The notes beneath the pieces were generated by a model that saw nothing but the letters and a program-made list of their open reading frames with translations, ran no database searches and was not told the origin of the DNA. A DNA stretch of 64,000 bases, from the IMG/VR virus record IMGVR_UViG_3300028379_000001, positions 4,186 through 68,185 of that record; one strand, 5' to 3'. The position numbers were made by a program, and so were the translations under genes. This DNA is from a virus (Duplodnaviria; Caudoviricetes). Positions 5,714 through 30,411 of this stretch are shown piece after piece (position 1 is the first letter of the stretch; each line of letters starts with the position of its first letter).

Positions 5714-8700
5714 CTAGGCCGCCTCCCCTTCGGGTGGCCCCTCATCCTCGTCCTCCTCTCCTTGGGGGATGACGATGAGGCCCTTGACGGTGAGTGAGAC
5801 GCCGAAGCCGGACCGCTTGAGTCCTTGGGTGATGACGACGTCTTGCATTGGAACGATCTCCTCGACCATCTTTCGGTAGCGGGGGAAGTCCCAGCGGTTG
5901 ATCTTGAGGTACACATCGTCGTCGCCGTCATCGTAGCAGTGGAGCGTGACGGACTTGACGAGGTGCGGGTCTCGGGTCCGAGCCAGGATCTCGTCGACCG
6001 TGTCCCCGCTCCGGGCGCGCTCGTCCTCGATCAGGTCCTTGTACTCGACCTTCCGGACCACGCCCATCCAGATCAGCTGGCAGTCGCGGTCGCGGGGGAT
6101 CTCGTGGGACCGGTGGGTCGGGGTCGGGAGCCCTCGGAAGTCGACCCGACGACGACGGATGCCGTCGCGGATAAAGTCGAGGGTCTTCGCGGTCAGCTCG
6201 ATCGCGAACGGGTCGTCCTGCTCGGCGAACTCCTGGATCTTGGCGGAGGTGGTCGGGCCGACCCCCTTGACCGCTTCGTACGCCACCCAGTCCTCCGCGC
6301 CGTGGGCGTTCTTGAAGTCGATCATCGCCTTGGACATCTTGGCGCCGACGCCGTGGATCTGCACGAGCCCCGCCCGGATGCCGCGTTCGTCGGTCAGGTC
6401 CGGGCTCCAAGTAATCTCCGACAGCTGGGGATCGGGCGGGAGGACGTTGAAGCCGTTCTTTACCGCGTCGTTCAGGAGGCGCGGGCGCCGCTGCTCGCGA
6501 GCCTTCTTGTCGTCGCCGACCTTCTGGAGCTGGGCGGCGTAGAACTCGCGAGGGTAGTGCTGCTTGAGGTACTGGCACCAGAAGCCGAGCATGCTGTAGG
6601 AGATGCAGTGCGCGACGTTGAACGAGTAGGTCGCCGACGTCACCATGAACTTCCAGATCCGATCGGCCAGCTTCCCGTCGATCCCGTGCCCGTTCTTGGC
6701 GCCCTGGATGAACATCTCCTTCATGTTGTTCATGTGCGCCTCGCCGAGCTTCTGCGAGATGGCCCGGCGGATGTCACCGATCCGCTCGACCGGGAACCCG
6801 CCGATGTCGCGGACGATCTGGAGGACCTGCTCCTGATAGATGATCTGGCCGTAGGTCCCTTTCGTGTACTGCCACACGAGCGGGTGCAGGTGATCGGGCT
6901 TCGCCCGGCCGTGCTTGACTTCCATGTACTGCGCGGTCATCCCCGAGAATAGAGGGCCAGGCCGACTAAGAGCATTGATATCAGCAAGGTGCATGAAGTG
7001 GTCCGGAACCACGCCCGCGTTAACCAGCCGAGTGGCCCGACCCTCGAATTGGAAGATACCAACAACATCACCACGGCGAAAAGCATCCATAGTGCGCTGT
7101 TCGTCCAGAGGAACAGTGTAAAGCTCGGCAAGGTCCATCCCAATCATCTCAAGGACGAGGTCGATCATGCCCATCGTGGACAACCCGAGGAAGTCCATCT
7201 TGAGCATGCCCAGATACTCGCCGTCCTTCTTGTCGTAAGCCAGGACGGAACGCTTGTGCCCGTTGATCTCTCGGGTGTAGACGGCGGACGTATCCGAGAT
7301 CGGCGCGTTCGAGAGGACGATGCCGGCGGCGTGCACCGACATGCCGCGCATGTTCCCCTCCAGTAGCGTCGCCTTCATCAAGTCCGGGAACTTGTCGACG
7401 GCGGCCCGCGCGGAGGGGAACATGTCGATCGAGTCCGACAGCGAGTCGTCGGCCCGCGAGTCTCCGCCCGAGCGGTCTAGGACGACACTCTTGACCGCGT
7501 CCTCCGCGTACTTGGGGATGTTGTAGACGCGGGCGACGTCCACCACCGAGTTGCGCCCCTTGTACTTGACGAAGTTTCCGATGTTGGCCACACGATCCGC
7601 GCCCCATCGTCGCACAAGATACTCGCGTACCTCTTCCCGTCGGTTGTCGGCGAAGTCAAGATCAATGTCGGGCAGGTCCATTCGGCTGACGTCGATGAAC
7701 CGCTCGAAGACCATCGTCGGGAACTGAATCGGGTCAACCTCCGTAACCCGTAGCATGTAGAGAACCACGCTAGCGGCAGCAGAGCCACGAGCAGGCCCCA
7801 CCGGGATCGGACGGGGTCGAAGATCCTTCGCCCACCGGACCGCGTCCGCGACCATGAGGAAGTAGTCATTGAAGTCCTTGTCGTCGATGTGCCCCATCTC
7901 ATAATGGAGCTTCTCCACGTACGCCTTCGGGTCCGCCTGCATGCGGGGGTTGGTAGGGAGCCGGTAGCGCCAACCCTCCCGAAGCCATTCCCACAAGGTC
8001 TCCCGCGCCGTCCAGCCGTCTTCCAGCGGGAAGCGGAGCGGTTCGTTCTTGGGGAGCGTCAGGGTGCACCGCTCGGCGATCTCGCTCGTGTTGAGGATCG
8101 CCTGCCATGCGTCCGACGGGCTCAGGCCCGTCGCCATGAGGTCCGCGTACACCTCGTAGTCACTCGTCGGGTACGTCAGCAGGATGTCGTACTCCCAGCC
8201 CGCTTCCACAGAGTCGACCGTCCCGCCCCGGTGCGCGGCGTGGAGGATCTTCTGCATCTCGTTCTGCGAGCCGTAGGGGTAGTGGACGTCAGCGGTCGCG
8301 ACGAGGGGCACGCCGGTTCGACGGCTCAGCTCGGCGAACGCGGGGTTGAGGGTCCGGGCTCGTTCCAGTCCCGGGAACCTCTGCACTTCCAGATAGTACC
8401 CATCCCCAAACAGAGATTGATACTTCCGCACGACCTTCTCGGCATTGGACATGTCGAACGTGGACGCCCGATTCCGGCGCTCCCCGAGACTCTTCCCGCC
8501 CAGGAGGGTGCACGACAAGTGTGAGTCCGCGCAACCAGAAGTCGCGATCAGACCTTCCGCGTGATTCGCGAGCATCGGTCCGTGTACTGTTGGCCATTGG
8601 TAGAACCCTTCCTCCCAGGATTCACCCACCAGTTCGTTGAGGTTGCGGAGACCTTCCGGAGTCTCCGCGATCAGCGTCTGGTGGAACTTCTGCCGCGTCT

Positions 8701-8984: not shown

Positions 8985-9572
8985 TCACTCTTTCGAGTGA
9001 ATCGCTTCCTGGCGGAACAGGTCCAGGATCAGGAAACAGGCGCCGATGATGTCCAGAATCATCTCCTCCGGACCCTCGTGGTTCATGGGCTTGCCGTCCC
9101 AGAGCGACCTCTCCAGCTTGGCCATCTTCCGGTGCAGCCCGACATACTCGCCCTTCGGCCCGAGCCCGGTCCGGTGCTGGTCGCCATAGTCGGCGTTCTT
9201 CGGCAGGAAGTGCCCGAGCACCTGCGGCACGATGTGCTCGACGATGTCCTTGGCAGACTCGGTCGCGTACGGCGCCTGCTCCCGGCCGCCGAGCACATCC
9301 GAAGCCGATGCGTACCGGCCGCCGAGCGCCGCCTTCTCCTCGGCGGAGAACCGGATGCACGGCAGTCCGACCGTCCGGTGCACCATCCAGATTTCGGCCG
9401 GATTGCCGCACTGGCACCTCTGCTCGAAGGGCGGCGCGGGCTCCTTCGGCTGGACCCACTCGGGCGGGGTCGCCTGCTCGATGAGATCGGCGACGTTGAT
9501 CTGGGGCCTCTCGTCGGTCACGGGCTCTCCTCCGAACGGACGCGCGGCGTCACGGACGCACTTCTCACACAC
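8985..9572 (-). CDS. Nucleotide-modification-associated domain 1 (DUF1599/MazG-like helical) protein
   Basis: C-terminal KNADYG...LHRKMAKLERS...EEMILDIIGACFL pattern; alternative GTG start at 9521 has a strong GGAGGAG RBS. Confidence 0.6.
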   Translation of the reverse strand: MCEKCVRDAARPFGGEPVTDERPQINVADLIEQATPPEWVQPKEPAPPFEQRCQCGNPAEIWMVHRTVGLPCIRFSAEEKAALGGRYASASDVLGGREQAPYATESAKDIVEHIVPQVLGHFLPKNADYGDQHRTGLGPKGEYVGLHRKMAKLERSLWDGKPMNHEGPEEMILDIIGACFLILDLFRQEAIHSKE

Positions 9573-9573
9573 A

Positions 9574-10179
9574 CTACGCCTCCTTATGGAGCTGGGACAC
9601 GAGCACCAGGTTGCGCTCGGTCAGGCCGAAGATGAAGTTGGCTCCGACGTGCAGCTTCCACGGCCTGCCGTCCCCGCCCTCGGCGGCGTGGTCGTACTGC
9701 CGCTCCGAGAGCACGTTGCGCCAGGTGTCGATCGCGTACCGGGTCTTGTGCATTAGGCACTCGTTGGCCAGCTGACCCATGTAGTGCGGGTGGATCAGGG
9801 TCACGACCCCGCCCGGCTCCAGCACGCGCTCGATCTCGCGGAGCGCCCGGACGACCGCCCAGTCCGCGAGGTGGTCCAGCGTGTGGTAGATCGCGACTCG
9901 TCCCACAGACTCGGACTCGTACGGGATGCGCCAGCGGGTGCTCTCGGTCGCCATCGCGTCCCACTCGGGGTACTCGATGTTGTCCCAGCCATCGATGATC
10001 TTCTTGCCGGCTCCGAGCTGGATCATGTGTCCGCCGACCATCGGCGCACTCGTCCACTCGATCCGGTCCCGGACCATCGCGATGTCGATGTGGTCCCAGA
10101 CCGACATGGGCTGCGGGAACTCGCGGACTCCCTTGTCGTCCTCGGCCGGAACAGCGTTGTGGTTCATGTAGCGGGTCAT
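9574..10179 (-). CDS. Class I SAM-dependent methyltransferase
   Basis: IQLGAG motif I, YHTLDHL...ALREIERVLEPGGVVTLIHP; start ATG 10179. Confidence 0.8.
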   Translation of the reverse strand: MTRYMNHNAVPAEDDKGVREFPQPMSVWDHIDIAMVRDRIEWTSAPMVGGHMIQLGAGKKIIDGWDNIEYPEWDAMATESTRWRIPYESESVGRVAIYHTLDHLADWAVVRALREIERVLEPGGVVTLIHPHYMGQLANECLMHKTRYAIDTWRNVLSERQYDHAAEGGDGRPWKLHVGANFIFGLTERNLVLVSQLHKEA

Positions 10180-10994
10180 ACCTTCTCCTCCGATTCGTGC
10201 AGGAACATGAGCTGCTGGGCGTCGGCGTACGCCTCGTGGACCAGGCGCTCCCGGTCCCACCGCCCGTACCGGCCTAGGTGCTTGATCGAGGGCCAGCAGT
10301 CGCAGTTGTGGCTGAGGGGCTTCCGGACCTCCTTGACGCCGGGCAGCAGCGGCATCTTGATGTGACCGGGCCACTCGACCGTGCTGTGGCCAAACATCCG
10401 GCTCACCCGGTACCAGGAGACGTCGGCGGTACCGTTGTAGTCGATGACCTCGTCGGTGCCCTCGATCGGCGACTTGCCGAAGGTGCTGTCCCCGCTCGCC
10501 CAGATCATCGTCTCGCGGAACTGATGCGCGGAGTTGACACAGAGCGCCTTACGCGGGATGGTGTTGATGATGAGGTCCGCGTGCTCGTACATCGTGTTGA
10601 ACATCTTCTGCAACTCGTCGCGGTTCGGCCGGAACTCCATGTGCTGCACGAGGTCCGAGTACCACGTCCACAGCGACTTGTAGGTCCCGCGCAGGTCCCA
10701 TGCGACGTGCGCGTCGTCGCGGAGGTCGTCCGAGATGTGGCCGTCCCACATTTCCCCGTAGACCTTCCGGAGGTAGTCCTCCGGGCTCCCGCTCATCCGG
10801 TACCGGATCACTCGGGGCTCGCCCGCTTCCTCGACGAGTCCGGGGATCGGCTGGTGGAGGTACTGCGCCCCGAAGATCGGGGATGGCCGCTTGACCGAGA
10901 ACAGTCGCACCTCCGCTTTCCCCGCCGTCGAGTTCAGGATTGAGTGCGCTGCGACGAGTCCGACCGGACCGCATCCGAGGATCGCAACCTTCAT
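10176..10994 (-). CDS. FAD/NAD(P)-dependent oxidoreductase, UDP-galactopyranose mutase-like ends
   Basis: Rossmann MKVAILGCGPVGLVAAH; C-terminal HLGRYGRWD...HEAY; start ATG 10994. Confidence 0.75.
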   Translation of the reverse strand: MKVAILGCGPVGLVAAHSILNSTAGKAEVRLFSVKRPSPIFGAQYLHQPIPGLVEEAGEPRVIRYRMSGSPEDYLRKVYGEMWDGHISDDLRDDAHVAWDLRGTYKSLWTWYSDLVQHMEFRPNRDELQKMFNTMYEHADLIINTIPRKALCVNSAHQFRETMIWASGDSTFGKSPIEGTDEVIDYNGTADVSWYRVSRMFGHSTVEWPGHIKMPLLPGVKEVRKPLSHNCDCWPSIKHLGRYGRWDRERLVHEAYADAQQLMFLHESEEKV

Positions 10995-11176
10995 GCCTTG
11001 TCTCCCTTCCAGAACGGGCATCGGGTCGTCCCGTTCCGACAGATTACTTTGGTCTTGCTGACCACCCAGTGGACGTGCACCCCGGCCTCCAACTCCTCCA
11101 AGTACTGCTCTTTCAGCTGCGGCAGTCGGTGAGTAATCTTGGCGGTTGCCGGCGTGTACACCCTGGGAAGTCTCAC
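10991..11176 (-). CDS. Hypothetical protein (61 aa)
   Basis: ORF track; 4-nt overlaps on both sides. Confidence 0.6.
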   Translation of the reverse strand: MRLPRVYTPATAKITHRLPQLKEQYLEELEAGVHVHWVVSKTKVICRNGTTRCPFWKGDKA

Positions 11177-11757
11177 TGGACCGTGACCTCCCGCGTGTCG
11201 AGGTCGATCGCGAGCGCATCCGGCAGGACCCGCTCGCCGTTCGCGAGCCGGGGGACGTCCGCTTTGCTGACGTACAGCTTGTAGCTACCGTGGTCGTCGT
11301 TCAGCGGCCACAAGTACGGCATGTCGTCGGGGGTACCGGGGAACTGCTCGCCGTAGTGGTGTTCCGCTTTGCGGAGGAGATTGGAACGATGCGACCGGAG
11401 CACCCACAGGTCATCCAGCCAAGCCGGGCGGGCGACCGGAGCCGTCAGGAGCTGGCCGGGCTCGCTCGGCACCATGCCGTACTCCTGCGCCAGCTCGGCG
11501 AACTTGCCCCAGGTCGTGTCGTTGTGCCCGCGCTCGATCCGCCATTCGTGCGCAACAAAAAGGCCGTACAGGACCAGGGCGGGCTCGTAGCCCTCCCACA
11601 TCCGTACGGCCGGGTGGTTCGCGTATCCGTCGGTCTCGCCACGGAGCACCGACAGGATCTGGATCGTCTCGGCTCGCTGCTTTTCGAGCCGGTCGTTGTC
11701 GAGTGCACGCATAGTTTTGGCGTGCGTCTTGTGCGTGACAAAGGTCTGCATCGTCAT
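11173..11757 (-). CDS. Pyrimidine-dimer DNA glycosylase (T4 EndoV-like / MSMEG_6728-like)
   Basis: MQTF...LDNDRLEKQRAE...GYANHPAVRMWEGY...SHRSNLLRK...PYLWP pattern. Confidence 0.8.
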   Translation of the reverse strand: MTMQTFVTHKTHAKTMRALDNDRLEKQRAETIQILSVLRGETDGYANHPAVRMWEGYEPALVLYGLFVAHEWRIERGHNDTTWGKFAELAQEYGMVPSEPGQLLTAPVARPAWLDDLWVLRSHRSNLLRKAEHHYGEQFPGTPDDMPYLWPLNDDHGSYKLYVSKADVPRLANGERVLPDALAIDLDTREVTVQ

Positions 11758-11902: not shown

Positions 11903-12871
11903 TCAGAACGGCGGCTCGTCGGTCTTCGCGCGACGCTTCGCCGCCGGACGGGCCTTCGCCGCCGGGGCCGACTTCCCGCGACCGGAGGGCGCGCGACGGG
12001 CGGGCTTCGCGGGCTCGGGCTCCTCTTCCTCGTCGTCCTCCTCCTCGGGCTCGTCCTCCAGCTCGTCCTCGTCCTCGGGCTCCTCCTCGTCCTCCAGGGG
12101 GAACTCCGCCTCCAGGATGGCCTCGATGATGTCGTTGTCGGTGACCTTCGTGGTCACGCGGAGGTCGGAGGGCTTGATCTTCTTCAGCTCCGTCCGCGAC
12201 ATCCCCTCCAGCTCGGCGCGACGCTCCTCCAGCTCGTCGTCCTCGCCCTCCTCCTCGGCGTCGTCGTCCTCGGGCTCGGCGTCGTCCTCCTCCGCCTCCT
12301 CGTCGTCGTACTCCTCGTCCTCCAGCTCCTCGTCGTCCTCGTCGGCGACGACGGGCTTGGGGGCGTCGGTGATCGGGATGAGGGAGTTGATGCGCAGCTG
12401 CTCGTCGCCCTCGTACTTCTCCTTGCTGGTGTTGGCGGCGACCTCGATCGAGTCCGGAACGTTCCACGTCCCGATCTTCTTGATCATGCCCTCGCCGTCG
12501 CCCTCGGTGACGACGTTGCCCGCCCAGAACGCCTTCAGGACGGCCTTCTGCTTGGCGTCGGTCAGCTTCGTCCCGGCGAGGATCGCCAGGAGGAACTGGT
12601 TGACGCGATTGGCGTTCTCCTTCTCGCAGGTCCGGTACAGCCAGCCGGACGCGCCGTTGTACTGGGCCTTCTTGGTGCCCGACGGCTCGGCGATCTCCAG
12701 CACGCACTTCATCATCGGGGCGCCCGCCTTGGATTCGGTCGCCTCCAGACGCTTCAGGTTGAAGCGGTACACGCCCTTGGGCGGGACCGGGCCGTCGTAG
12801 CCGATGATCGTGTCGCTGGGGGCCTCGTCCGCGAGGTCCTGCCCGAAGCCAACCGCATTCCACTTGCCCAT
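11903..12871 (-). CDS. ssDNA-binding protein-like (DUF669-type) with long acidic tail
   Basis: PPKGVYRFNLKRLEATESKAGAPMMKCVLEI; Asp/Glu-rich linker; ends DEPPF. Confidence 0.7.
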   Translation of the reverse strand: MGKWNAVGFGQDLADEAPSDTIIGYDGPVPPKGVYRFNLKRLEATESKAGAPMMKCVLEIAEPSGTKKAQYNGASGWLYRTCEKENANRVNQFLLAILAGTKLTDAKQKAVLKAFWAGNVVTEGDGEGMIKKIGTWNVPDSIEVAANTSKEKYEGDEQLRINSLIPITDAPKPVVADEDDEELEDEEYDDEEAEEDDAEPEDDDAEEEGEDDELEERRAELEGMSRTELKKIKPSDLRVTTKVTDNDIIEAILEAEFPLEDEEEPEDEDELEDEPEEEDDEEEEPEPAKPARRAPSGRGKSAPAAKARPAAKRRAKTDEPPF

Positions 12872-16925: not shown

Positions 16926-17507
16926 TCAGAACTCGGCCTCGGCCGCACCCGTCGAGCGGCGAGCCGCCTTCGGCCGGGTCGACGCGGCCGGGCGCGCGGC
17001 CCGACCCGAGCCCCGCGCGGGCCGACCGGCGGGCTTCGCCGCCGTCTCGGTCGTCGCCTTCGCGGCGCGGGTCCGACGGGCGGGCTTGGCCGGGGCCTCG
17101 TCCTCCTCCTCGGTCGCGGCGGCGCGGGTCCGTCGCGCGGGCTTGGCGGCCTTCTCGGCCTCCTTGGCCTCGCGGGCCTTGGCGCGGTCGGCCTTCGCAG
17201 CCTCGCGGGCCTCGGCCGCCGTCTCGGCCTCCTCCTCCTTGCGGGCGGCCTCGGCCTCCTTGAACTCGTGGTTCTCGGGGGACCGCTGGTGGAGCGAACG
17301 CCACCGGAGGGCGTACGCGGCGGCGTCCATGGCCGCGTCGAACTCCTTCTTGGTCTTGAAGGCGTCCTCGCCGCCCATCCGCTCCAGGACCCACTCGGCG
17401 AAGTGGGTGTGGAGCGGTCGGTGGCCGTTCTCGGTGACCTTCTCGACGTCGGCGGCGTAGTCGATCTCGTCGCCCTCGGGGATCTCGTACTTGCGCTCTC
17501 GTGCCAT
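16926..17507 (-). CDS. Protein with Ala/Lys/Arg-rich histone-like tail, likely DNA-binding
   Basis: AKPARRTRAA repeats; own promoter upstream. Confidence 0.75.
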   Translation of the reverse strand: MARERKYEIPEGDEIDYAADVEKVTENGHRPLHTHFAEWVLERMGGEDAFKTKKEFDAAMDAAAYALRWRSLHQRSPENHEFKEAEAARKEEEAETAAEAREAAKADRAKAREAKEAEKAAKPARRTRAAATEEEDEAPAKPARRTRAAKATTETAAKPAGRPARGSGRAARPAASTRPKAARRSTGAAEAEF

Positions 17508-22688: not shown

Positions 22689-22726
22689 GATTTCCTCCGA
22701 TTCGAGGGCCTCCCGGCCCGCCGAGT

Positions 22727-23294: not shown

Positions 23295-23324
23295 TTCGGG
23301 CCTCCCGGTCCGTTCGATACCTTG

Positions 23325-25367: not shown

Positions 25368-25407
25368 CGCGGGGCCTCCCGGTCCGTCGCTCTCTCTTAC
25401 AAGTACA

Positions 25408-26099: not shown

Positions 26100-27247
26100 C
26101 TACCCCTCCGCTACGCCGCTGTCCTCGGCGCACTGGTCGTGAAGCTTTCCATGCTCCCCGTAGTCGATCAGGTCCCCGTCGACCGCCGAGCCCGGCATGT
26201 CGCAGGCGTCGCACTTATCGGCCATCAGCCCTCCTCCTGCCAGTTCCCCGCGCCATGCTGGGAGTTCATGAACTCCGCCATCACCTTCCGCGCGTCCTCG
26301 CGCCTCACGGCCTCCCCCTGGAAGTAGTCCGACGACCAGCGGCCATCCTTTCCTCGCACCCGGAGGTAGAACTTGTGGACCTCCATCAGACCAGCTCCTT
26401 GCGCACGGGGTCCGTCCCTTGGAGCGAGGGGCAGGACGGGTCGCAGTAGAACCCGGCCGGGGCTCCGCAGCCATCCTCGCAGTCGATCGAGAACATCTCG
26501 CAGTCCTCGTCCGGCACCTTCACGTACTTCGCGCCCGGCATATCGGCCGGGGTCGGCGAGTCCGACATCAGACAGTCCTCTCCGTTGCGTAGCCAAGCCG
26601 GATAAGCCAGGGGCCGATCGTCGCGTGGATCTTCGCGCGGGAGACCTCGGCGATCGACCCCGGATCGGGGTACTCCCCGTCCATCGACGCGACCTGGTAC
26701 CGATCCTCCTCGCCCATCCGGGCCACGACGAACGGGAGTGGTCCGGTCGAGAGCTGCGTGAAGCACGCCATGCCGGCCTCGATCCCGGTATACATCGGAA
26801 CCGTCAGCGTCGGCCGGTCCTCCGTTCCGAACGCCTCGATCGAGAAGTACAGGTCCAGCAGGAGCGCAAGCTCCATCACGTCCTCGTCCGGGTCCGCGAA
26901 GTTCCGCAGCTTCGCGACGGGCCGCCCGTCGACCCATTCCCACGGACCGCCGTCGAACGTTCCGTCGCCCATCGTCGGCGCGGTTCCGTACCCGCCGTAC
27001 AGCTCAAACTTCGTCCAGTCGACGTCGATCATCAGCCCTCATCCTTCCGTCGGATCTTCGCGATCTCGCGCGCCGGTCCGGCGAACATCACCGTCGGCCA
27101 TCCCCCGCCCGTGGCTCCGGCAGGAGCCGAAACGGACCAGGAGACCTCACGCGGGTCCGCGCCCGCTTCGGCGAGGTAGACCGCTACGGCGGTCTCGATC
27201 TTTTCCCCCGCGTCGACCACGACAGGGACATTCACAGACTCGAACAT
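26100..27247 (-). other. Array of five early genes: 26100-26225, 26225-26386, 26386-26568 (Cys-rich), 26568-27032, 27032-27247
   Basis: All linked by TGATG stop/start overlaps; starts re-called by hand. Confidence 0.7.
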
Positions 27248-27389
27248 GGTTCTCCTAAGGTCGGAGGGCTCGCAGGAATTTCGGCAATAGGTTCGTACGC
27301 TAAGGCGCGCAGACTCCTGTCCCCTGACGGGTCCAGTCGTCTCTAAGGGAGGTCTTAAGCCCTAGCGGCGCGGGTGCGCCGCCGGGGGT

Positions 27390-27575
27390 CTAGCGGGGGA
27401 CGACTCGGGTGTAGTGGCGAGGAACCTCGCCGTAGGCGGTTCGGAGGACGACGACCGGGCCGGTCGGCCGGTGGCGACCTTCGAGGCGCACGACGGTCCC
27501 GACGACCTTCGGACCGGCACCGACGATCTCGACGGGACGGCCGACGTAGAACTTCGAGGTAATTCCGGAAAACAT
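27390..27575 (-). CDS. 61-aa early protein, SH3-barrel-like pattern (MFSGITSKFYVGRPVEIVG...)
   Basis: ATG 27575 after TAAGGAG; hairpin GCGGCGC-GGGT-GCGCCGC (27365-82) follows the stop. Confidence 0.7.
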   Translation of the reverse strand: MFSGITSKFYVGRPVEIVGAGPKVVGTVVRLEGRHRPTGPVVVLRTAYGEVPRHYTRVVPR

Positions 27576-27583
27576 GGGTCTCC

Positions 27584-27781
27584 TTAGGACGTAGCGGCGC
27601 GGAGTCGAGAGGTAATCGGGGAGACCTCTTCGGCGGTTTCGACGCCGAATTCGAGGAGGGTCGCCCCGGCCGCCGTAGAGACGGCGGACCAATCGTAGTA
27701 GAGGAACCCGAGGATTCGGGAGAGGTACCGAGCGATCTCGACGTCCCCGACGACCGGGACGGAGAAGTAGAAGGTAAGGAT
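27584..27781 (-). CDS. 65-aa early protein with predicted ATC start
   Basis: TAAGGAG-6 nt-ATC; (M)LTFYFSVPVVGDVEIARYLSRILGFLYYDW...RAATS; GC3-rich; no in-frame ATG/GTG/TTG; absent from ORF track. Confidence 0.6.
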   Translation of the reverse strand: MLTFYFSVPVVGDVEIARYLSRILGFLYYDWSAVSTAAGATLLEFGVETAEEVSPITSRLRAATS

Positions 27782-27791
27782 AGCGGTCTCC

Positions 27792-27875
27792 TTAGGACGG
27801 ACGGTCGGCGATCCGACCGACTACGTAGAGGATCGAGAAGAGGACGACGAACGTTACGATCGGCGCGAAAATTAT
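27792..27875 (-). CDS. 27-aa single-TM early protein with predicted ATA (or ATT) start
   Basis: TAAGGGGAGCC-ATA; (M)IFAPIVTFVVLFSILYVVGRIADRPS; its TAA lies within the next RBS. Confidence 0.55.
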   Translation of the reverse strand: MIFAPIVTFVVLFSILYVVGRIADRPS

Positions 27876-27913
27876 GGCTCCCCTTAGGACGGAGCGGGAC
27901 GGATTTCTACGGA

Positions 27914-28237
27914 CTACCAGCAGAAGCAGGTTCGGGGGACGTAGACCTTCATCCCGCAACCGGGGCACGGCGTCGCCCGGTCGATTCGGCGTTCGATCGA
28001 CTCGGCCCGCTTCGTCGCCGCCGACTTAGGCTTAGGCTTAAAGCGGATCGGAGCCCCGATAGGGGTCCCGTAGAAGCCGGACGACCGGACCCGGAAATCG
28101 ACGTCGGGACGAGTCCCCGCCGAGGACGTCGATCCGACGTTCCCCTTCGAGAATCCTCCCCCGGTACGGGGCGAGGCGACGATCTTTCGAGTCCCGTTCG
28201 GGACGAAACCCGGAGCGTTCTCGTATCCCTCGATGAT
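27914..28237 (-). CDS. 107-aa first early protein with C-terminal CPGC...CFC, predicted ATC start
   Basis: TAGGGAGAGCC-ATC; (M)IEGYENAPGFVPNGTRK...TPCPGCGMKVYVPRTCFCW; absent from ORF track. Confidence 0.65.
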   Translation of the reverse strand: MIEGYENAPGFVPNGTRKIVASPRTGGGFSKGNVGSTSSAGTRPDVDFRVRSSGFYGTPIGAPIRFKPKPKSAATKRAESIERRIDRATPCPGCGMKVYVPRTCFCW

Positions 28238-28253
28238 GGCTCTCCCTAATCGG

Positions 28254-28296
28254 CGGCCTCCCGGCCGATCCTCCGAACCGGCCTCCCGGCCGATCC
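28254..28296. repeat. 18-bp direct repeat CGGCCTCCCGGCCGATCC x2 in the 5' leader of the first early gene
   Basis: Copies at 28254-28271 and 28279-28296. Confidence 0.85.
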
Positions 28297-28312
28297 GCTT
28301 CGTTCCGTTCCT

Positions 28313-28616
28313 AGCTTAGCGGTAGACGCTTCCGGCGTCTACCCCCTCTTTCGAGGGCCGACCGGCGAGCCGGTCCCGGAGGGAGTCTAGCCTATCGACT
28401 CCCTCGGCGTCTAGCGGCTCCCGTTCCGTCCGGCGACCCTAGTTCGCCGAAGATTCCCGGGATACGACCCCTTAGGGGGCCGAACCGCTACCGAGAGGAT
28501 CGTACCCTATCCGCGCTAGTCGCGTCTAGGGGGCTCGTCCCCCGCCCCCGACCGGCCCCTTAGCGGGTCCGTTCCTCGGCGACGGGGATAACCTTACGGG
28601 ACGCTACCGGCGTCTA
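28313..28616 (-). promoter_or_regulatory. Cluster of three GACGC-N5-GCGTC sites with leftward early promoters
   Basis: 28325-39 (TAGACG-17-TAAGCT, perfect GGTAGACGC/GCGTCTACC inverted repeat); 28397-411 (one mismatch, TAGACG-18-TAGACT); 28600-14. Confidence 0.75.
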
Positions 28617-28639
28617 CCTAGAACTTTCTTATCGCCGCT

Positions 28640-29290
28640 GGTCCGCTGGCGAGTCGCGACCTCGGCTCGCGCGGGATCGTTTTCCGCGCGCCAGGGCGCG
28701 TTGTGCGCGCGCGGTTCCTCCCCTGGCTTCGGCGGAGGCGTACGCCCGCCTCCGAGGACGAGGTACCGCGCGGGATTCCATTGTCGCGGGGCATGCGCGC
28801 GGATCCAATTCCGCGCGTCGCACCCGCTCGCCCGCGCGAGAAGCGGAACCGGGCGGGATTCTGTTGTCGCGACGTACGCGCCCGGTGCCTATGTAGTCGC
28901 GCGTATGCCCGCCCGCCCGTAGAGACGAACCGCGCGCGGTTCCTTTGGTCGCGTACGGAAAAGGGGGAGGGGGAGGGGCTTTAGGGAGGGGGAGGGGGAG
29001 ACGCGATGCGGCCGCGCGGGGGTATCGCGCGCGTCAATCGCGCACAATCGCAGGCGCCCGCGAACGGCGGCGCGCCCGCACCACCAGATCCCTTGGGAGG
29101 GATACTGGGTGGGTCAGTTTAAGTATCCCTGTGCGAGCGCGGCGAGCCTGCGGGGCGCGCGATCGGCGCAGAGTATCTGCGCCGCTACCGCCCGTAACAT
29201 GAACCAGCCCCGCAGCTCGGAGGGAGACTGCGGGGCTAGCCCAGCGGCGACAGGTCTCGGGCCGGAAGTCCCTCAAACGATCCGTCGCGG
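28640..29290. other. Non-coding CGCG-rich block with palindrome, repeats and G-run tract; candidate genome terminus/packaging region
   Basis: GAACCGCGCGCGGTTC palindrome 28927-42; 19/22 repeat 28767-88/28850-71; G-runs 28963-28998. Confidence 0.5.
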
Positions 29291-29304
29291 TCTACTCTAC
29301 CTGA

Positions 29305-29592
29305 TCAGCCGACAGCGGTCGAGCTGGCACCGCCCTTCTCACCAGGCTTGACGCGCCACTGGTGCTTGGCCGCGTAGGACGCAGCGAAGCCGACCAGAGC
29401 GGGCACGAGCGGCAGGATGAACCACTCCAGGGCGTCCGGAACCGCCTCCAGCAGCAGCGCGTTGTTGTCGGCCGTCGAGGCGTCCGTGATCGCGAGCAGG
29501 ACCACAGCCGAGAGGTAGAACCCGAGGACTCCGAGCTTGGTCTTCGGCTCCACCTTCGACGTGTCGGCGGGCTCGGGATTGATCGTGGTCAT
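29305..29592 (-). CDS. Holin
   Basis: Two TM segments; directly downstream of the endolysin; ATG 29592 after AGGAG. Confidence 0.75.
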   Translation of the reverse strand: MTTINPEPADTSKVEPKTKLGVLGFYLSAVVLLAITDASTADNNALLLEAVPDALEWFILPLVPALVGFAASYAAKHQWRVKPGEKGGASSTAVG

Positions 29593-29600
29593 GTCGTCTC

Positions 29601-30347
29601 CTACTTGTAGCCGTACTTGGCCATCTCGCTGTACGTGTTGGGTCCGAGGACGCCATCCGCCACGAGCTTGGATCGGGACTGGAACTCCTTGACGACCTGG
29701 ATCGTCACCGGCCCATACCGCTGGGCCGCGCGGTTCGCGTCGAGAGGGATCTTGCTGTAGACGGGGAACTTGGTGTTGAAGAAGTTCGCCACCTCCCAGA
29801 CGTCCCCGCCCGTCATTCCCTCGACGAGGGTCCGTGCGCCGCCGATCGGATAGGTGGTGCCGGGGATGGGGTTGTTGTTGCGGAGTCGGTTCGCGACCAC
29901 GCCAACCTTCGCGGCGTTGCCCTTGATCTCGAAGTGCATCTCGTCCGGGGTGCCGGTGAAGTTCCCGCCCCACTCGACGACGTTGTCGACCTCGGCCAGG
30001 ATGCGCTTGATCTCGCGGACCTGGTCCGGGGTGAAGGTGCCCCGCTTACCGTTGGGGTGCCGAGTGGCGTTCGCGTCGCCCGCCGTCGCGCTCGCGTGGC
30101 ACGAGAGGTTGTTGGCGTTCCGGTTCTGCCGGTAGTTGTAGCCCCAGTCGTCGGCGTCGTGCCAGCCCGGCTTCCAGATCGGCTCCACTCGATCGTGGAA
30201 CTGCTGGAAGACGTAGGACAGGACGGTGTGGACGTCGCCGGTCCGCACGCCAGGAGCGAAGCTCTCGCCCGCGATGACGAGCGGGGTGATCCCGCCGAAG
30301 TCCTTGGGGTTGGGGCTGGCTGTCCAGCCGTTGTAGCTGGTCTCCAT
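29601..30347 (-). CDS. Endolysin: M15-type peptidase plus peptidoglycan-binding domain
   Basis: WGYNYR...LSCHASATAGD...WGGNF...DEMHFEI; C-terminal YGPVTIQVVKEFQSRSKLVADGVLGPNT. Confidence 0.9.
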   Translation of the reverse strand: METSYNGWTASPNPKDFGGITPLVIAGESFAPGVRTGDVHTVLSYVFQQFHDRVEPIWKPGWHDADDWGYNYRQNRNANNLSCHASATAGDANATRHPNGKRGTFTPDQVREIKRILAEVDNVVEWGGNFTGTPDEMHFEIKGNAAKVGVVANRLRNNNPIPGTTYPIGGARTLVEGMTGGDVWEVANFFNTKFPVYSKIPLDANRAAQRYGPVTIQVVKEFQSRSKLVADGVLGPNTYSEMAKYGYK

Positions 30348-30411
30348 CTGGCTCCTCTCATGAGAGCAGGGGGCCAGCCCGAAGGCCAACCCCCTGCTCA
30401 GACTTCAGACG

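Follow-up and report, generated by a model that had tools for sequence, protein, structure and literature searches.

Why should more than a kilobase of a phage genome do almost entirely without the dinucleotides CA and TG? The question is raised by a segment of IMG/VR virus record IMGVR_UViG_3300028379_000001, a 100%-complete genome of 68,185 bp; the window analysed is a stretch of 64,000 nt of this record, and all coordinates are positions in it. The phage that carries the segment is uncultured, high in G+C and of soil type. A first-pass annotation had counted ten CA or TG dinucleotides in 27577-28638, and our recount agreed exactly: seven plus-strand CA (observed/expected, O/E, 0.11) and three TG (O/E 0.05), with none between 28238 and 28638. 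As the annotation had also noted, the seven CA are coding-strand TG in codons where it is unavoidable (Trp, two; Cys, four; Met, one), and the three TG adjoin start codons, which we find to be ATA and ATC. The sharp edge proposed at 28639 is there too. The fade proposed near 27400, however, is right for plus-strand CA only; plus-strand TG, which is CA in the sense of the mRNA, stays at O/E 0.2-0.3 as far as ~26400. The purged DNA thus comprises two zones:

Zone A, 27390-28638, minus strand: CA and TG both purged, on both strands, from the promoter array through gene gA.
Zone B, 26389-27389, minus strand: sense CA depleted, sense TG normal; spans genes g5, p154 and p60.

Zone A contains 17 CA/TG where ~140 are expected, and with these sites left the avoidance falls short of absolute. 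The longest gap free of CA/TG in it measures 402 bp (28237-28639), where ~85 bp would be the expected maximum, and the four longest such gaps in the 68,185 bp scanned (402, 268, 185 and 115 bp) all lie inside the purged zone. We found no comparable island or outlier for any other dinucleotide class in the genome; the CA/TG-poor stretches at 11904-12059 and 16946-17087 are low-complexity coding sequence, rich in D/E or in A/R/K. When synonymous codons were shuffled with the proteins kept, the observed CA/TG totals were reached in none of 5000 shuffles for each gene. Codons ahead of an A-starting codon never end in C (0 of 38, versus 43% in large genes), and His and Gln are avoided in the encoded proteins. 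The avoidance is visible in the non-coding leader, within codons, at codon junctions, in the choice of amino acids and in start codons, and reflects selection on the nucleic acid rather than on the proteins. Indeed, G+C is essentially that of the surroundings (65.1% versus 66.5-67.8% in the flanks) and the O/E of CG (1.42) and of TA (1.42-1.48 versus 0.54) are both raised, which argues for selection and against one-way or RIP-like mutation.

Several other readings of the composition were tried and rejected: avoidance of pause sites, since CG is enriched; avoidance of a flexible DNA step, since TA is enriched; use of optimal codons, because avoiding the C|A junction disfavours codons that end in C, and because the purge extends to the non-coding leader; and misreading of a modified base during sequencing, which would give a much larger gain in TA and would not be confined to one locality. 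The first-pass annotation had allowed that the segment might be an assembly artefact. This is excluded, as five independently assembled contigs, four of them of 50-200 kb, all carry the gene for one and the same 61-aa protein, gA.

What the purge covers can be read from the features of the locus:

P1, 28587-28616, minus strand: promoter, -35 element TAGACG at 28611-28616.
P2, 28499-28528, minus strand: promoter, TAGACG, N18, TACGAT.
P3, 28384-28413, minus strand: promoter, TAGACG, N18, TAGACT.
P4, 28313-28341, minus strand: promoter, TAGACG, N17, TAAGCT.
28254-28296, minus strand: 5′-UTR motif CCGGGAGGCC, two copies, a small GC hairpin.
gD, 27914-28237, minus strand: ~107-aa protein whose C terminus bears a zinc ribbon (CPxCG...CxC).
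gC, 27792-27875, minus strand: 27-aa hydrophobic peptide, described as a membrane peptide.
gB, 27584-27781, minus strand: 65-aa acidic protein.
gA, 27390-27575, minus strand: 61-aa basic protein that starts at ATG; purged only in part.
27362-27384, minus strand: GC-rich hairpin directly after the gA stop, where the two-strand purge ends.

The promoters belong to a host-type family defined by TAGACG, a 17-18 bp spacer and TAnnnT; four of them in tandem, then four small genes, make up a predicted layout of pre-early type. A simple sigma-70 and terminator scan reported no promoter and no relevant terminator, having missed the family promoters because it expects TTGACA, and an Rfam search of 27000-29600 gave nothing above threshold. 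The -35 element of P1 overlaps the palindrome GACGC-N5-GCGTC and has an A/T-rich stretch immediately upstream, and P4 is nearly identical to a promoter on L064, a contig of the relative described below. The CCGGGAGGCC motif is also found 3′ of other promoters of the same family; since promoter family and motif are common to the rest of the genome, the zone is native rather than imported. It begins at the upstream edge of P1, where the first TG lies 22 bp upstream of the -35 element, and stops at the hairpin after gA, so that the zone coincides with a transcription unit, essentially all of it predicted to be transcribed from the first promoter. Because no family promoter lies between this hairpin and g5, it may serve as an attenuator or stabilise an RNA end. 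The segment forms the front part of the first early operon of the phage, and solely from its position and promoters we infer that it would be immediate-early.

The annotation had placed the purge at the head of the early region and regarded it as selected; both points are supported, and the purge is larger than first claimed. Its further step, that the depletion acts at the DNA level, does not follow, because essentially the whole zone would be transcribed from the first promoter and is prolonged by a tail of ~1 kb on one strand. In this tail (zone B) mRNA-sense CA is found 14 times versus ~58 expected, the most depleted context being ACA (1 versus 12.6 expected), and NTG is missing from the antisense strand only. 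Within it, p154 has seven CA versus 19.1 expected, a count reached in none of 2000 codon shuffles, with a normal count of TG. Such a tail points to a strand-specific reader, either of RNA or of one strand during transcription. The promoter DNA itself tells a different story. Copies of the family elsewhere carry 3-5 CA/TG per 58 nt, and their spacers contain CA/TG; all four copies in the leader are free of it. In the part of P1 that is not transcribed the count is 0, whereas six other copies average 3.5 (Poisson p ~0.03), which would be easier to explain with a reader of duplex DNA than with one of RNA.

We noted that three of the small genes are themselves altered by the ban. The putative start of gD is ATC-ATC after GGGAGAG, with no NTG codon before Met93; that of gC is ATA (or the next codon, ATT) after AAGGGGAG; and that of gB is ATC after AAGGAG. 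In each case a Shine-Dalgarno motif lies 2-6 nt before the ATC or ATA and upstream NTG codons are absent, and translation, as predicted from the sequence, must begin at ATC or ATA. Gene callers miss all three because they lack NTG starts, but homology identifies them as real genes: gD is 32% identical to an ATG-started gene on contig L064, and gC and gB are 46% and 47% identical to an ATG-started peptide and a GTG-started gene, respectively, on contig L065. The small proteins had no match in Pfam or PHROG, and for gD an Atlas look-up yielded no more than generic leads to small zinc ribbons, all below 0.9. A structure model of gA is all-beta; its confidence is low (mean pLDDT 65.8), which makes it unsuitable for fold searching. 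That selection strips His and Gln from the proteins and swaps ATG for ATC or ATA suggests that each CA or TG is costly at the start of infection.

Could this cost lie in expression itself? A ban on TG removes the usual start codons in six frames and spurious internal or antisense promoters, including TTGACA-type -35 elements and the TG of an extended -10. It follows directly from the sequence that without TG no frame has an NTG, and the family's -35 is TAGACG rather than TTGACG; zone B, free of NTG on the antisense strand alone, agrees as well. The real genes, however, lose their own NTG starts in the process, at a cost to expression, and the relative keeps ATG and GTG. Spurious promoters are rare at 65% G+C (the simple scan finds none in shuffled sequence either), the ban is absent from the phage's other operons, and effects this weak would hardly strip His and Gln from proteins. 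We consider a purge for the sake of clean expression very unlikely.

The only detectable relative is represented by two short metagenome contigs (L064 and L065), and these keep the purge, with no CA/TG in the first 444 bp and 31 versus 160 expected overall. Its proteins are 70% (gA; protein P0002), 47% (gB), 46% (gC) and 32% (gD) identical to those described here, and its gene order differs. It retains ATG, ATG and GTG starts for the homologues of gD, gC and gB. Its asymmetry is reversed (sense TG O/E 0.12, sense CA 0.25), so that no single simple strand rule fits both phages. The annotation had made its case depend on relatives sharing the depletion; the one relative does, whereas Nocardia phage P3.1 and mycobacteriophage PLot are without it. 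Wider searches added little. An endolysin-anchored search of IMG/VR returned 60 loci, none of them syntenic and none purged save that of an unrelated phage (L054), which is depleted of CA/TG genome-wide (O/E ~0.4-0.5) apart from one island of normal composition. IMG/VR and JGI metagenomes gave nothing useful when queried with gD, the 154-aa protein, the SNF2 helicase, the gA alignment or the 23-base promoter pattern. No match to gD or p154 turned up when 50,697 phage records were searched by tblastn. Exhaustive HMMER searching with the profile of gA recovered just itself and low-complexity matches, and the gB homologue as query found only itself.

The presence of the purge in a relative diverged to 32-70% protein identity indicates that it is maintained, since neutral drift would have erased it. 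This bears on a non-adaptive origin, by import from a CA/TG-poor donor or as the trace of local mutation by a RIP-like process or a deaminase. Whole phage genomes can be CA/TG-depleted, like that of L054, and TA is enriched as it would be after CpA-to-TpA mutation; fungal RIP likewise leaves a deficit of CA/TG and an excess of TA. RIP, however, lowers G+C and destroys genes, whereas here G+C is not lowered, CG is enriched as much as TA, and the reading frames are intact and conserved. The C-to-T change, G+C loss and gene decay of such hypermutation are not what the zone displays, and it uses the genome's own promoter family and 5′-UTR motif. Taken with the relative, this leaves a non-adaptive origin highly improbable.

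Our best guess, a tentative one, is target avoidance by the first-expressed operon. Expression of this operon would have to start on the incoming genome while that is still naked and no phage protein has been made, and the operon would have been stripped of a very short element targeted by a cleaving or base-modifying activity in the infected cell; its products, or later events, would then make the remaining genome safe. That a related phage observes the same ban suggests that some activity in infected cells reads CA/TG, in DNA or RNA. The one-strand tail suggests that the putative reader recognises single strands and not the duplex; it would see the mRNA or, alternatively, the non-template strand once displaced. 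Recognition on this scale has a precedent in phage-host conflict, where DarT reads a short (2-4-nt) context on single-stranded DNA (PMC11543638); the phage T-dioxygenases and Mom, discussed below, are further examples. Against target avoidance, if the reader acts on DNA, cutting or damaging any other part of the genome would do equal harm, and P3.1 and PLot manage without a purge.

A rival reading, which the first-pass annotation had proposed as one of two options, is that the zone is first-entering DNA that escapes a duplex-cutting defence before anti-restriction proteins are made. The models are the first-step-transfer region of T5 and the leader of T7 (promoters A1-A3, gene 0.3), which lack defined 4-8-bp restriction sites and form the physical leading end of the genome, in T5 within the terminal repeat. 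Like the zone, these segments are first-expressed, carry several strong host-polymerase promoters and small early genes, and are poor in sequences by which a host nuclease might recognize them ahead of any countermeasure; the tandem promoters and small genes here recall A1-A3 with gene 0.3. All genes of our phage are co-oriented, a 660-bp gene-free region with three iterons spaced 81-83 bp and a C-rich tract precedes the zone and could hold a genome end, and the purge in zone A is two-stranded and takes in the non-transcribed DNA of P1. The zone differs from T5 and T7, though, in banning a whole dinucleotide down to the start codons, in its one-strand tail, which a duplex reader would not predict, and in lying mid-genome. 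The two ends of the contig overlap by 127 bp and close it on itself, and we found no evidence in the genome sequence for a fixed first-injected end. Such an end is unlikely because the large terminase, portal and capsid are kin (43%, 37% and 49% identical, respectively) of those of PLot and cluster D mycobacteriophages, whose genomes are circularly permuted (PMC9387249).

Nor does the zone resemble ordinary avoidance of restriction sites. Any known restriction system needs a target far longer than a two-letter step, and no defined site of 4-8 bp is singled out: every CA/TG context is removed. Nine kinds of palindromic hexamer without CA/TG are kept in the zone, among them GAATTC, GGTACC, TACGTA, GACGTC, CCCGGG, TCCGGA and CGGCCG (five times). 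Besides CA/TG, CGCG and GCGC are depleted. Phage avoidance of restriction sites and palindromes is genome-wide and site-specific; it shares with the zone the removal of short targets at synonymous sites, but the zone is local. The option of first-injected DNA is weakened by these results, and we regard it as quite unlikely.

The annotation's other option was that the phage modifies its own DNA, at T in TpG or A in CpA. Modification would follow replication, and a site-free first operon would then let unmodified host RNA polymerase start on the modified incoming genome, and family promoters that bear CA/TG would have to wait for early proteins or for replicated DNA that is still unmodified. Several observations suit this model. 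Phage enzymes that modify DNA typically have a specificity on the dinucleotide scale, the one-strand tail clears TG from the template strand, which is the strand the polymerase reads, the DNA of P1 is purged too, and the CA/TG in the spacers of outside promoters would give a built-in difference in timing. Enzymes of this scale exist: a 2026 paper describes phage T-dioxygenases that prefer NTC or NTG (PMC13229309), so that TG is a documented target, and Mom acts at SAS (PMC13219725). The annotation had called TG/TC contexts established for the thymidine hypermodification of phages M6, ViI and phiW-14, but a 2018 paper states that these motifs "are not yet known" (PMC5889632). Our phage has no homologue of the T-dioxygenases or of Mom. 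Indeed, Tet_JBP, ParB_N, N6_N4_Mtase and TGT were unmatched in six frames of the complete genome, and no DNA-modifying enzyme of a recognised TG/CA-context family is predicted from it. A candidate nucleotide-modification operon with a flavoprotein, a SAM-methyltransferase and a glycosylase-like protein adjoins dnaE, but the methyltransferase is of the small-molecule type, and the flavoprotein, the methyltransferase and p195 are shared with the purge-less PLot and/or P3.1. The replication genes 20 kb downstream are normal in CA/TG and must likewise be read from parental DNA, and sense TG, on the non-template strand, is purged 800 bp past the last promoter, which the model does not need. Self-modification is thus weakened and, in our judgement, unlikely.

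Returning to target avoidance, a parallel for zone B is the MazF endoribonuclease, to which mRNAs without ACA are resistant: the transcript escapes an RNase through a missing 3-nt site, and ACA is the context most depleted in zone B. Unlike the MazF case, all CA contexts are depleted in the tail and all UG contexts also in zone A, and we know of no toxin with so broad a CA/UG specificity. To our knowledge, no bacterial counterpart of CpG sensing by ZAP has been described, nor does any known bacterial defence, RNase or phage modification account for a two-letter target. CpG depletion in vertebrate RNA viruses, read by ZAP (PMC10191365), is dinucleotide-level avoidance driven by a host factor, as proposed here, but it is eukaryotic, RNA-level and genome-wide. 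The annotation's statement that no purge of a whole dinucleotide has been described agrees with our literature search, which found no published description of such a CA/TG purge.

A weaker form of the signature occurs in E. coli phages. In the Wifcevirus ECML-117 (NC_025441), positions 6600-8400 have a CA+TG O/E of 0.24-0.5 versus 1.16 for the genome. This island resembles the zone in being local, in lying over small genes and in its raised CG and TA; it differs in that the depletion is 2-4-fold rather than near-absolute and ATG starts are kept, and its host, morphology and genes are unrelated to those of our phage. These unrelated E. coli phages resist restriction systems by no protection mechanism known to us.

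It is possible, though we would not count on it, that bacteria or their resident elements have an undescribed sensor of CA/UG (TG) on single strands that unrelated phages evade convergently, or else that the zone is an unmodified island amid an uncharacterised TG-context modification. If a single-strand CA/UG sensor exists, it would be a prokaryotic counterpart of ZAP acting in the first minutes of infection, and phages of Actinobacteria and of E. coli would have converged on writing the first operon without the CA/TG step. If the zone is instead an unmodified island, it would double as a timer between immediate-early and delayed-early promoters. With the signature present in a diverged relative and, more weakly, in unrelated E. 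coli phages, the CA/TG purge may be a general and overlooked layer of phage-host conflict. The purged island also provides a built-in negative control for searches of context-specific DNA modification.

The first-pass annotation had counted by hand an extreme shortage of CA and TG dinucleotides, and its counts were exact: positions 27577-28638 hold 7 CA (observed/expected, O/E, 0.11) and 3 TG (O/E 0.05). All seven plus-strand CA are coding-strand TG in Trp, Cys or Met codons, and all three plus-strand TG adjoin start codons, as it had reported. The genome's four longest CA/TG-free gaps (402, 268, 185 and 115 bp; longest expected, ~85 bp) lie within the purged minus-strand zone, ~27390-28638. 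The other nine dinucleotide classes have no comparable outlier, and the remaining CA/TG-poor stretches of the genome are only low-complexity acidic or basic coding sequence. The G+C content of the zone is unchanged, while CG (O/E 1.42) and TA (1.42; window TA 0.54) are both raised; in addition, CGCG and GCGC are 4-5-fold low and CTA/TAG 4-fold high. The features of the zone and its promoter family are as follows.

28616 (P1), 28528 (P2), 28413 (P3) and 28341 (P4), minus strand: tandem promoters, TAGACG, 17-18 bp, TAnnnT
26081, 25467, 25436, 23353, 22758 and 11857, minus strand: further copies of this promoter family, all intergenic
22707-22716, 23299-23308, 25373-25382, 28255-28264 and 28280-28289, minus strand: 10-mer CCGGGAGGCC
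27914-28237, minus strand: gD, zinc-ribbon protein, Shine-Dalgarno upstream
27792-27875, minus strand: gC, 27-aa hydrophobic peptide, Shine-Dalgarno upstream
27584-27781, minus strand: gB, 65-aa acidic protein, Shine-Dalgarno upstream
27390-27575, minus strand: gA, 61-aa basic protein, Shine-Dalgarno upstream
27362-27384: GC hairpin downstream of gA

An assembly artefact was ruled out, because an identical gA protein is present on five independently assembled contigs. When synonymous codons were shuffled according to the genome's own codon usage, the observed totals were reached in 0 of 5000 shuffles per gene. CTG, TTG and GTG, used at 40%, 6% and 29% in the genome, are unused in gB-gD; His and Gln are absent (~12 expected); and none of the 38 codons ahead of an A-starting codon ends in C, versus 43% elsewhere. 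The evidence is solid both for the depletion and for its being selected.

Along the minus strand, the zone starts 22 bp before the P1 -35 hexamer, and most of the four promoters overlap a GACGC-N5-GCGTC palindrome. The four leader copies contain no CA/TG per 58 nt, versus 3-5 in the six non-leader copies. The CCGGGAGGCC motif is a small GC stem capped by a GGGA loop. It lies in 5' UTRs 35-60 nt downstream of promoters of this family, twice downstream of P4 and also downstream of three others. The window has 6 exact copies where 0.8 would be expected, and the motif may act as a leader hairpin, either stabilising transcripts or binding a factor. Since no NTG codon is available at or upstream of the N-termini of gD, gC and gB, these genes are predicted to have to start at ATC, ATA (or ATT) and ATC, respectively. 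In public assemblies of the phage, ~1.7 kb from the lysis genes to gA carries no gene calls, because gD, gC and gB lack an NTG start; spurious plus-strand ORFs begin at the sole plus-strand ATGs (27874, 28233). The most fitting description of the unit is that it forms the front of the first early operon and is written without CA/TG. That the ban serves expression hygiene by excluding every NTG triplet is, we think, very unlikely.

Import or mutation as the origin is hardly credible. An imported module is rejected because the promoters and UTR motif are common to the rest of the genome. With G+C unchanged, CG raised and the genes intact, RIP-like mutation is rejected as well. Ordinary restriction-site avoidance is likewise out, as nine kinds of CA/TG-less palindromic hexamer are present in the zone.

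Searching 5.8 billion protein clusters with gA yielded a single relative (70% identity), located on two short metagenome contigs that overlap, L064 and L065. Besides the TAGACG promoter family and a long leader, these carry homologues of all four genes (gD 32%, gA 70%, gB 47% and gC 46% identity), in the order gD-gA-gB-gC, unlike the window, and with starts ATG, ATG, GTG and ATG, respectively. In L064 the first 444 bp are free of CA/TG, and the overall count is 31 versus 160 expected; sense-strand TG occurs only in start codons, in Cys codons and in a single Val and a single Leu codon, and CA/TG density is normal again downstream of the gC homologue. The comparison indicates that the purged genes are real genes and that the ban has been actively kept in both lineages, because a neutral compositional relic would have decayed at such divergence.

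Strand-split counts revealed a one-strand tail. mRNA-sense TG is normal again at ~27250, whereas mRNA-sense CA stays at O/E 0.2-0.3 down to ~26400 and its fade is complete only by ~25000. In codon shuffles of the downstream genes g5, p154 and p60, CA was 1 versus 4.3, 7 versus 19.1 (reached in 0 of 2000) and 2 versus 6.0 expected, with normal TG counts. Every CA context is low in the tail, ACA (1 versus 12.6) and TCA (2 versus 12.0) being lowest. The tail stops close to the next family promoter (26081), and the stretch from gA to g5 has none; the hairpin that follows gA therefore may not terminate the operon. In the relative the asymmetry is reversed (sense TG O/E 0.12, sense CA 0.25), so CA and TG can be banned separately and strand-specifically, which argues against a single symmetric reader of duplex DNA. 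The non-transcribed part of P1 is also CA/TG-free (Poisson p ~0.03), which counts against a pure RNA reading. We tentatively favour, at somewhat less than even confidence, target avoidance: early in infection, an activity that sees single strands would read a short context on them, and the first operon would avoid its target.

An unmodified island within a self-modified genome, as first proposed, appears unlikely. Phage enzymes with a 2-3-nt context do exist, as shown by T-dioxygenases preferring NTC or NTG (PMC13229309) and Mom acting at SAS (PMC13219725). However, the premise that TG/TC targeting by thymidine hypermodification is established is unsupported as stated, because the M6 and ViI motifs were 'not yet known' in 2018 (PMC5889632). 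Six-frame searches of the genome detected no Tet/JBP dioxygenase, ParB, N6/N4 DNA methylase or TGT-type transglycosylase. One operon bears on this reading.

8985-11757: operon upstream of and adjoining dnaE; T4-endoV-like glycosylase domain (PF03013), probable flavoprotein, SAM methyltransferase, phrog_10271 protein of unknown function

The probable flavoprotein has weak matches to flavin enzymes and the methyltransferase is of small-molecule type; these two and the phrog_10271 protein have homologues in Nocardia phage P3.1 and/or mycobacteriophage PLot, both purge-less. Neither P3.1 nor PLot has a counterpart of the glycosylase-like gene.

The record (68,185 bp, bases 4186-68185 forming the window) has ends sharing a 127-bp overlap, is 100% complete by CheckV and belongs to the terminal-repeat class in IMG/VR; it is 65% G+C, with all genes on the minus strand. 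The DnaE-type polymerase shares 58% identity with the P3.1 enzyme and 55% with those of cluster D mycobacteriophages; against PLot, identity is 43% for the large terminase, 37% for the portal and 49% for the major capsid protein. By these identities the phage is judged a distant uncultured relative of P3.1 and cluster D actinobacteriophages. The purge is not a family trait, as neither the first 40 kb of P3.1, including the unannotated gap at the syntenic position behind the lysis genes, nor the first 50 kb of PLot has a CA/TG island. That 1.1-kb gap (2230-3321 of P3.1, between lysis and early genes) has normal CA/TG; a promoter array of comparable kind, or small genes missed by the annotation, may lie within it.

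Along transcription, structural genes are followed by the endolysin (29601-30389), a 660-bp gene-free region, the zone, many small early genes and replication genes. Two features occupy the gene-free region.

28757-28947: three iterons of ~24-50 bp with a ACCGCGCGGGATTCC-like core, at spacings of 83 and 81 bp, immediately upstream of the leader
~28961-29000: 40-bp C-rich (plus-strand G-rich) tract adjoining the iterons

This array may be an origin, a pac site or a set of binding sites for a regulator, and the region could in principle hold a genome end, as would suit first-entering DNA that escapes a duplex-cutting defence. However, the zone lies mid-genome, and the phage's packaging and head genes are similar to those of cluster D, a group with circularly permuted genomes (PMC9387249); we regard such an escape as quite unlikely.

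We found no published description of a local dinucleotide purge in a phage. In Escherichia phage ECML-117 (NC_025441), an island at 6600-8400 covering small genes gp17-gp19 has CA+TG O/E of 0.24-0.5 versus 1.16 for the genome, with CG at 2.1-2.2 and TA at 1.2-1.4; the promoter-like -35 hexamer upstream of gp17, TTTACT, is likewise without TG. The unrelated phage contig IMGVR_UViG_3300011115_000480 (47% G+C, endolysin-anchored locus) has a genome-wide two-fold CA/TG depletion (O/E ~0.2-0.6) with CG and TA raised. It encodes an N6/N4 DNA methylase (10775-11737) and contains one 1.2-kb island (6600-7800) where CA/TG is normal or high and CG low.
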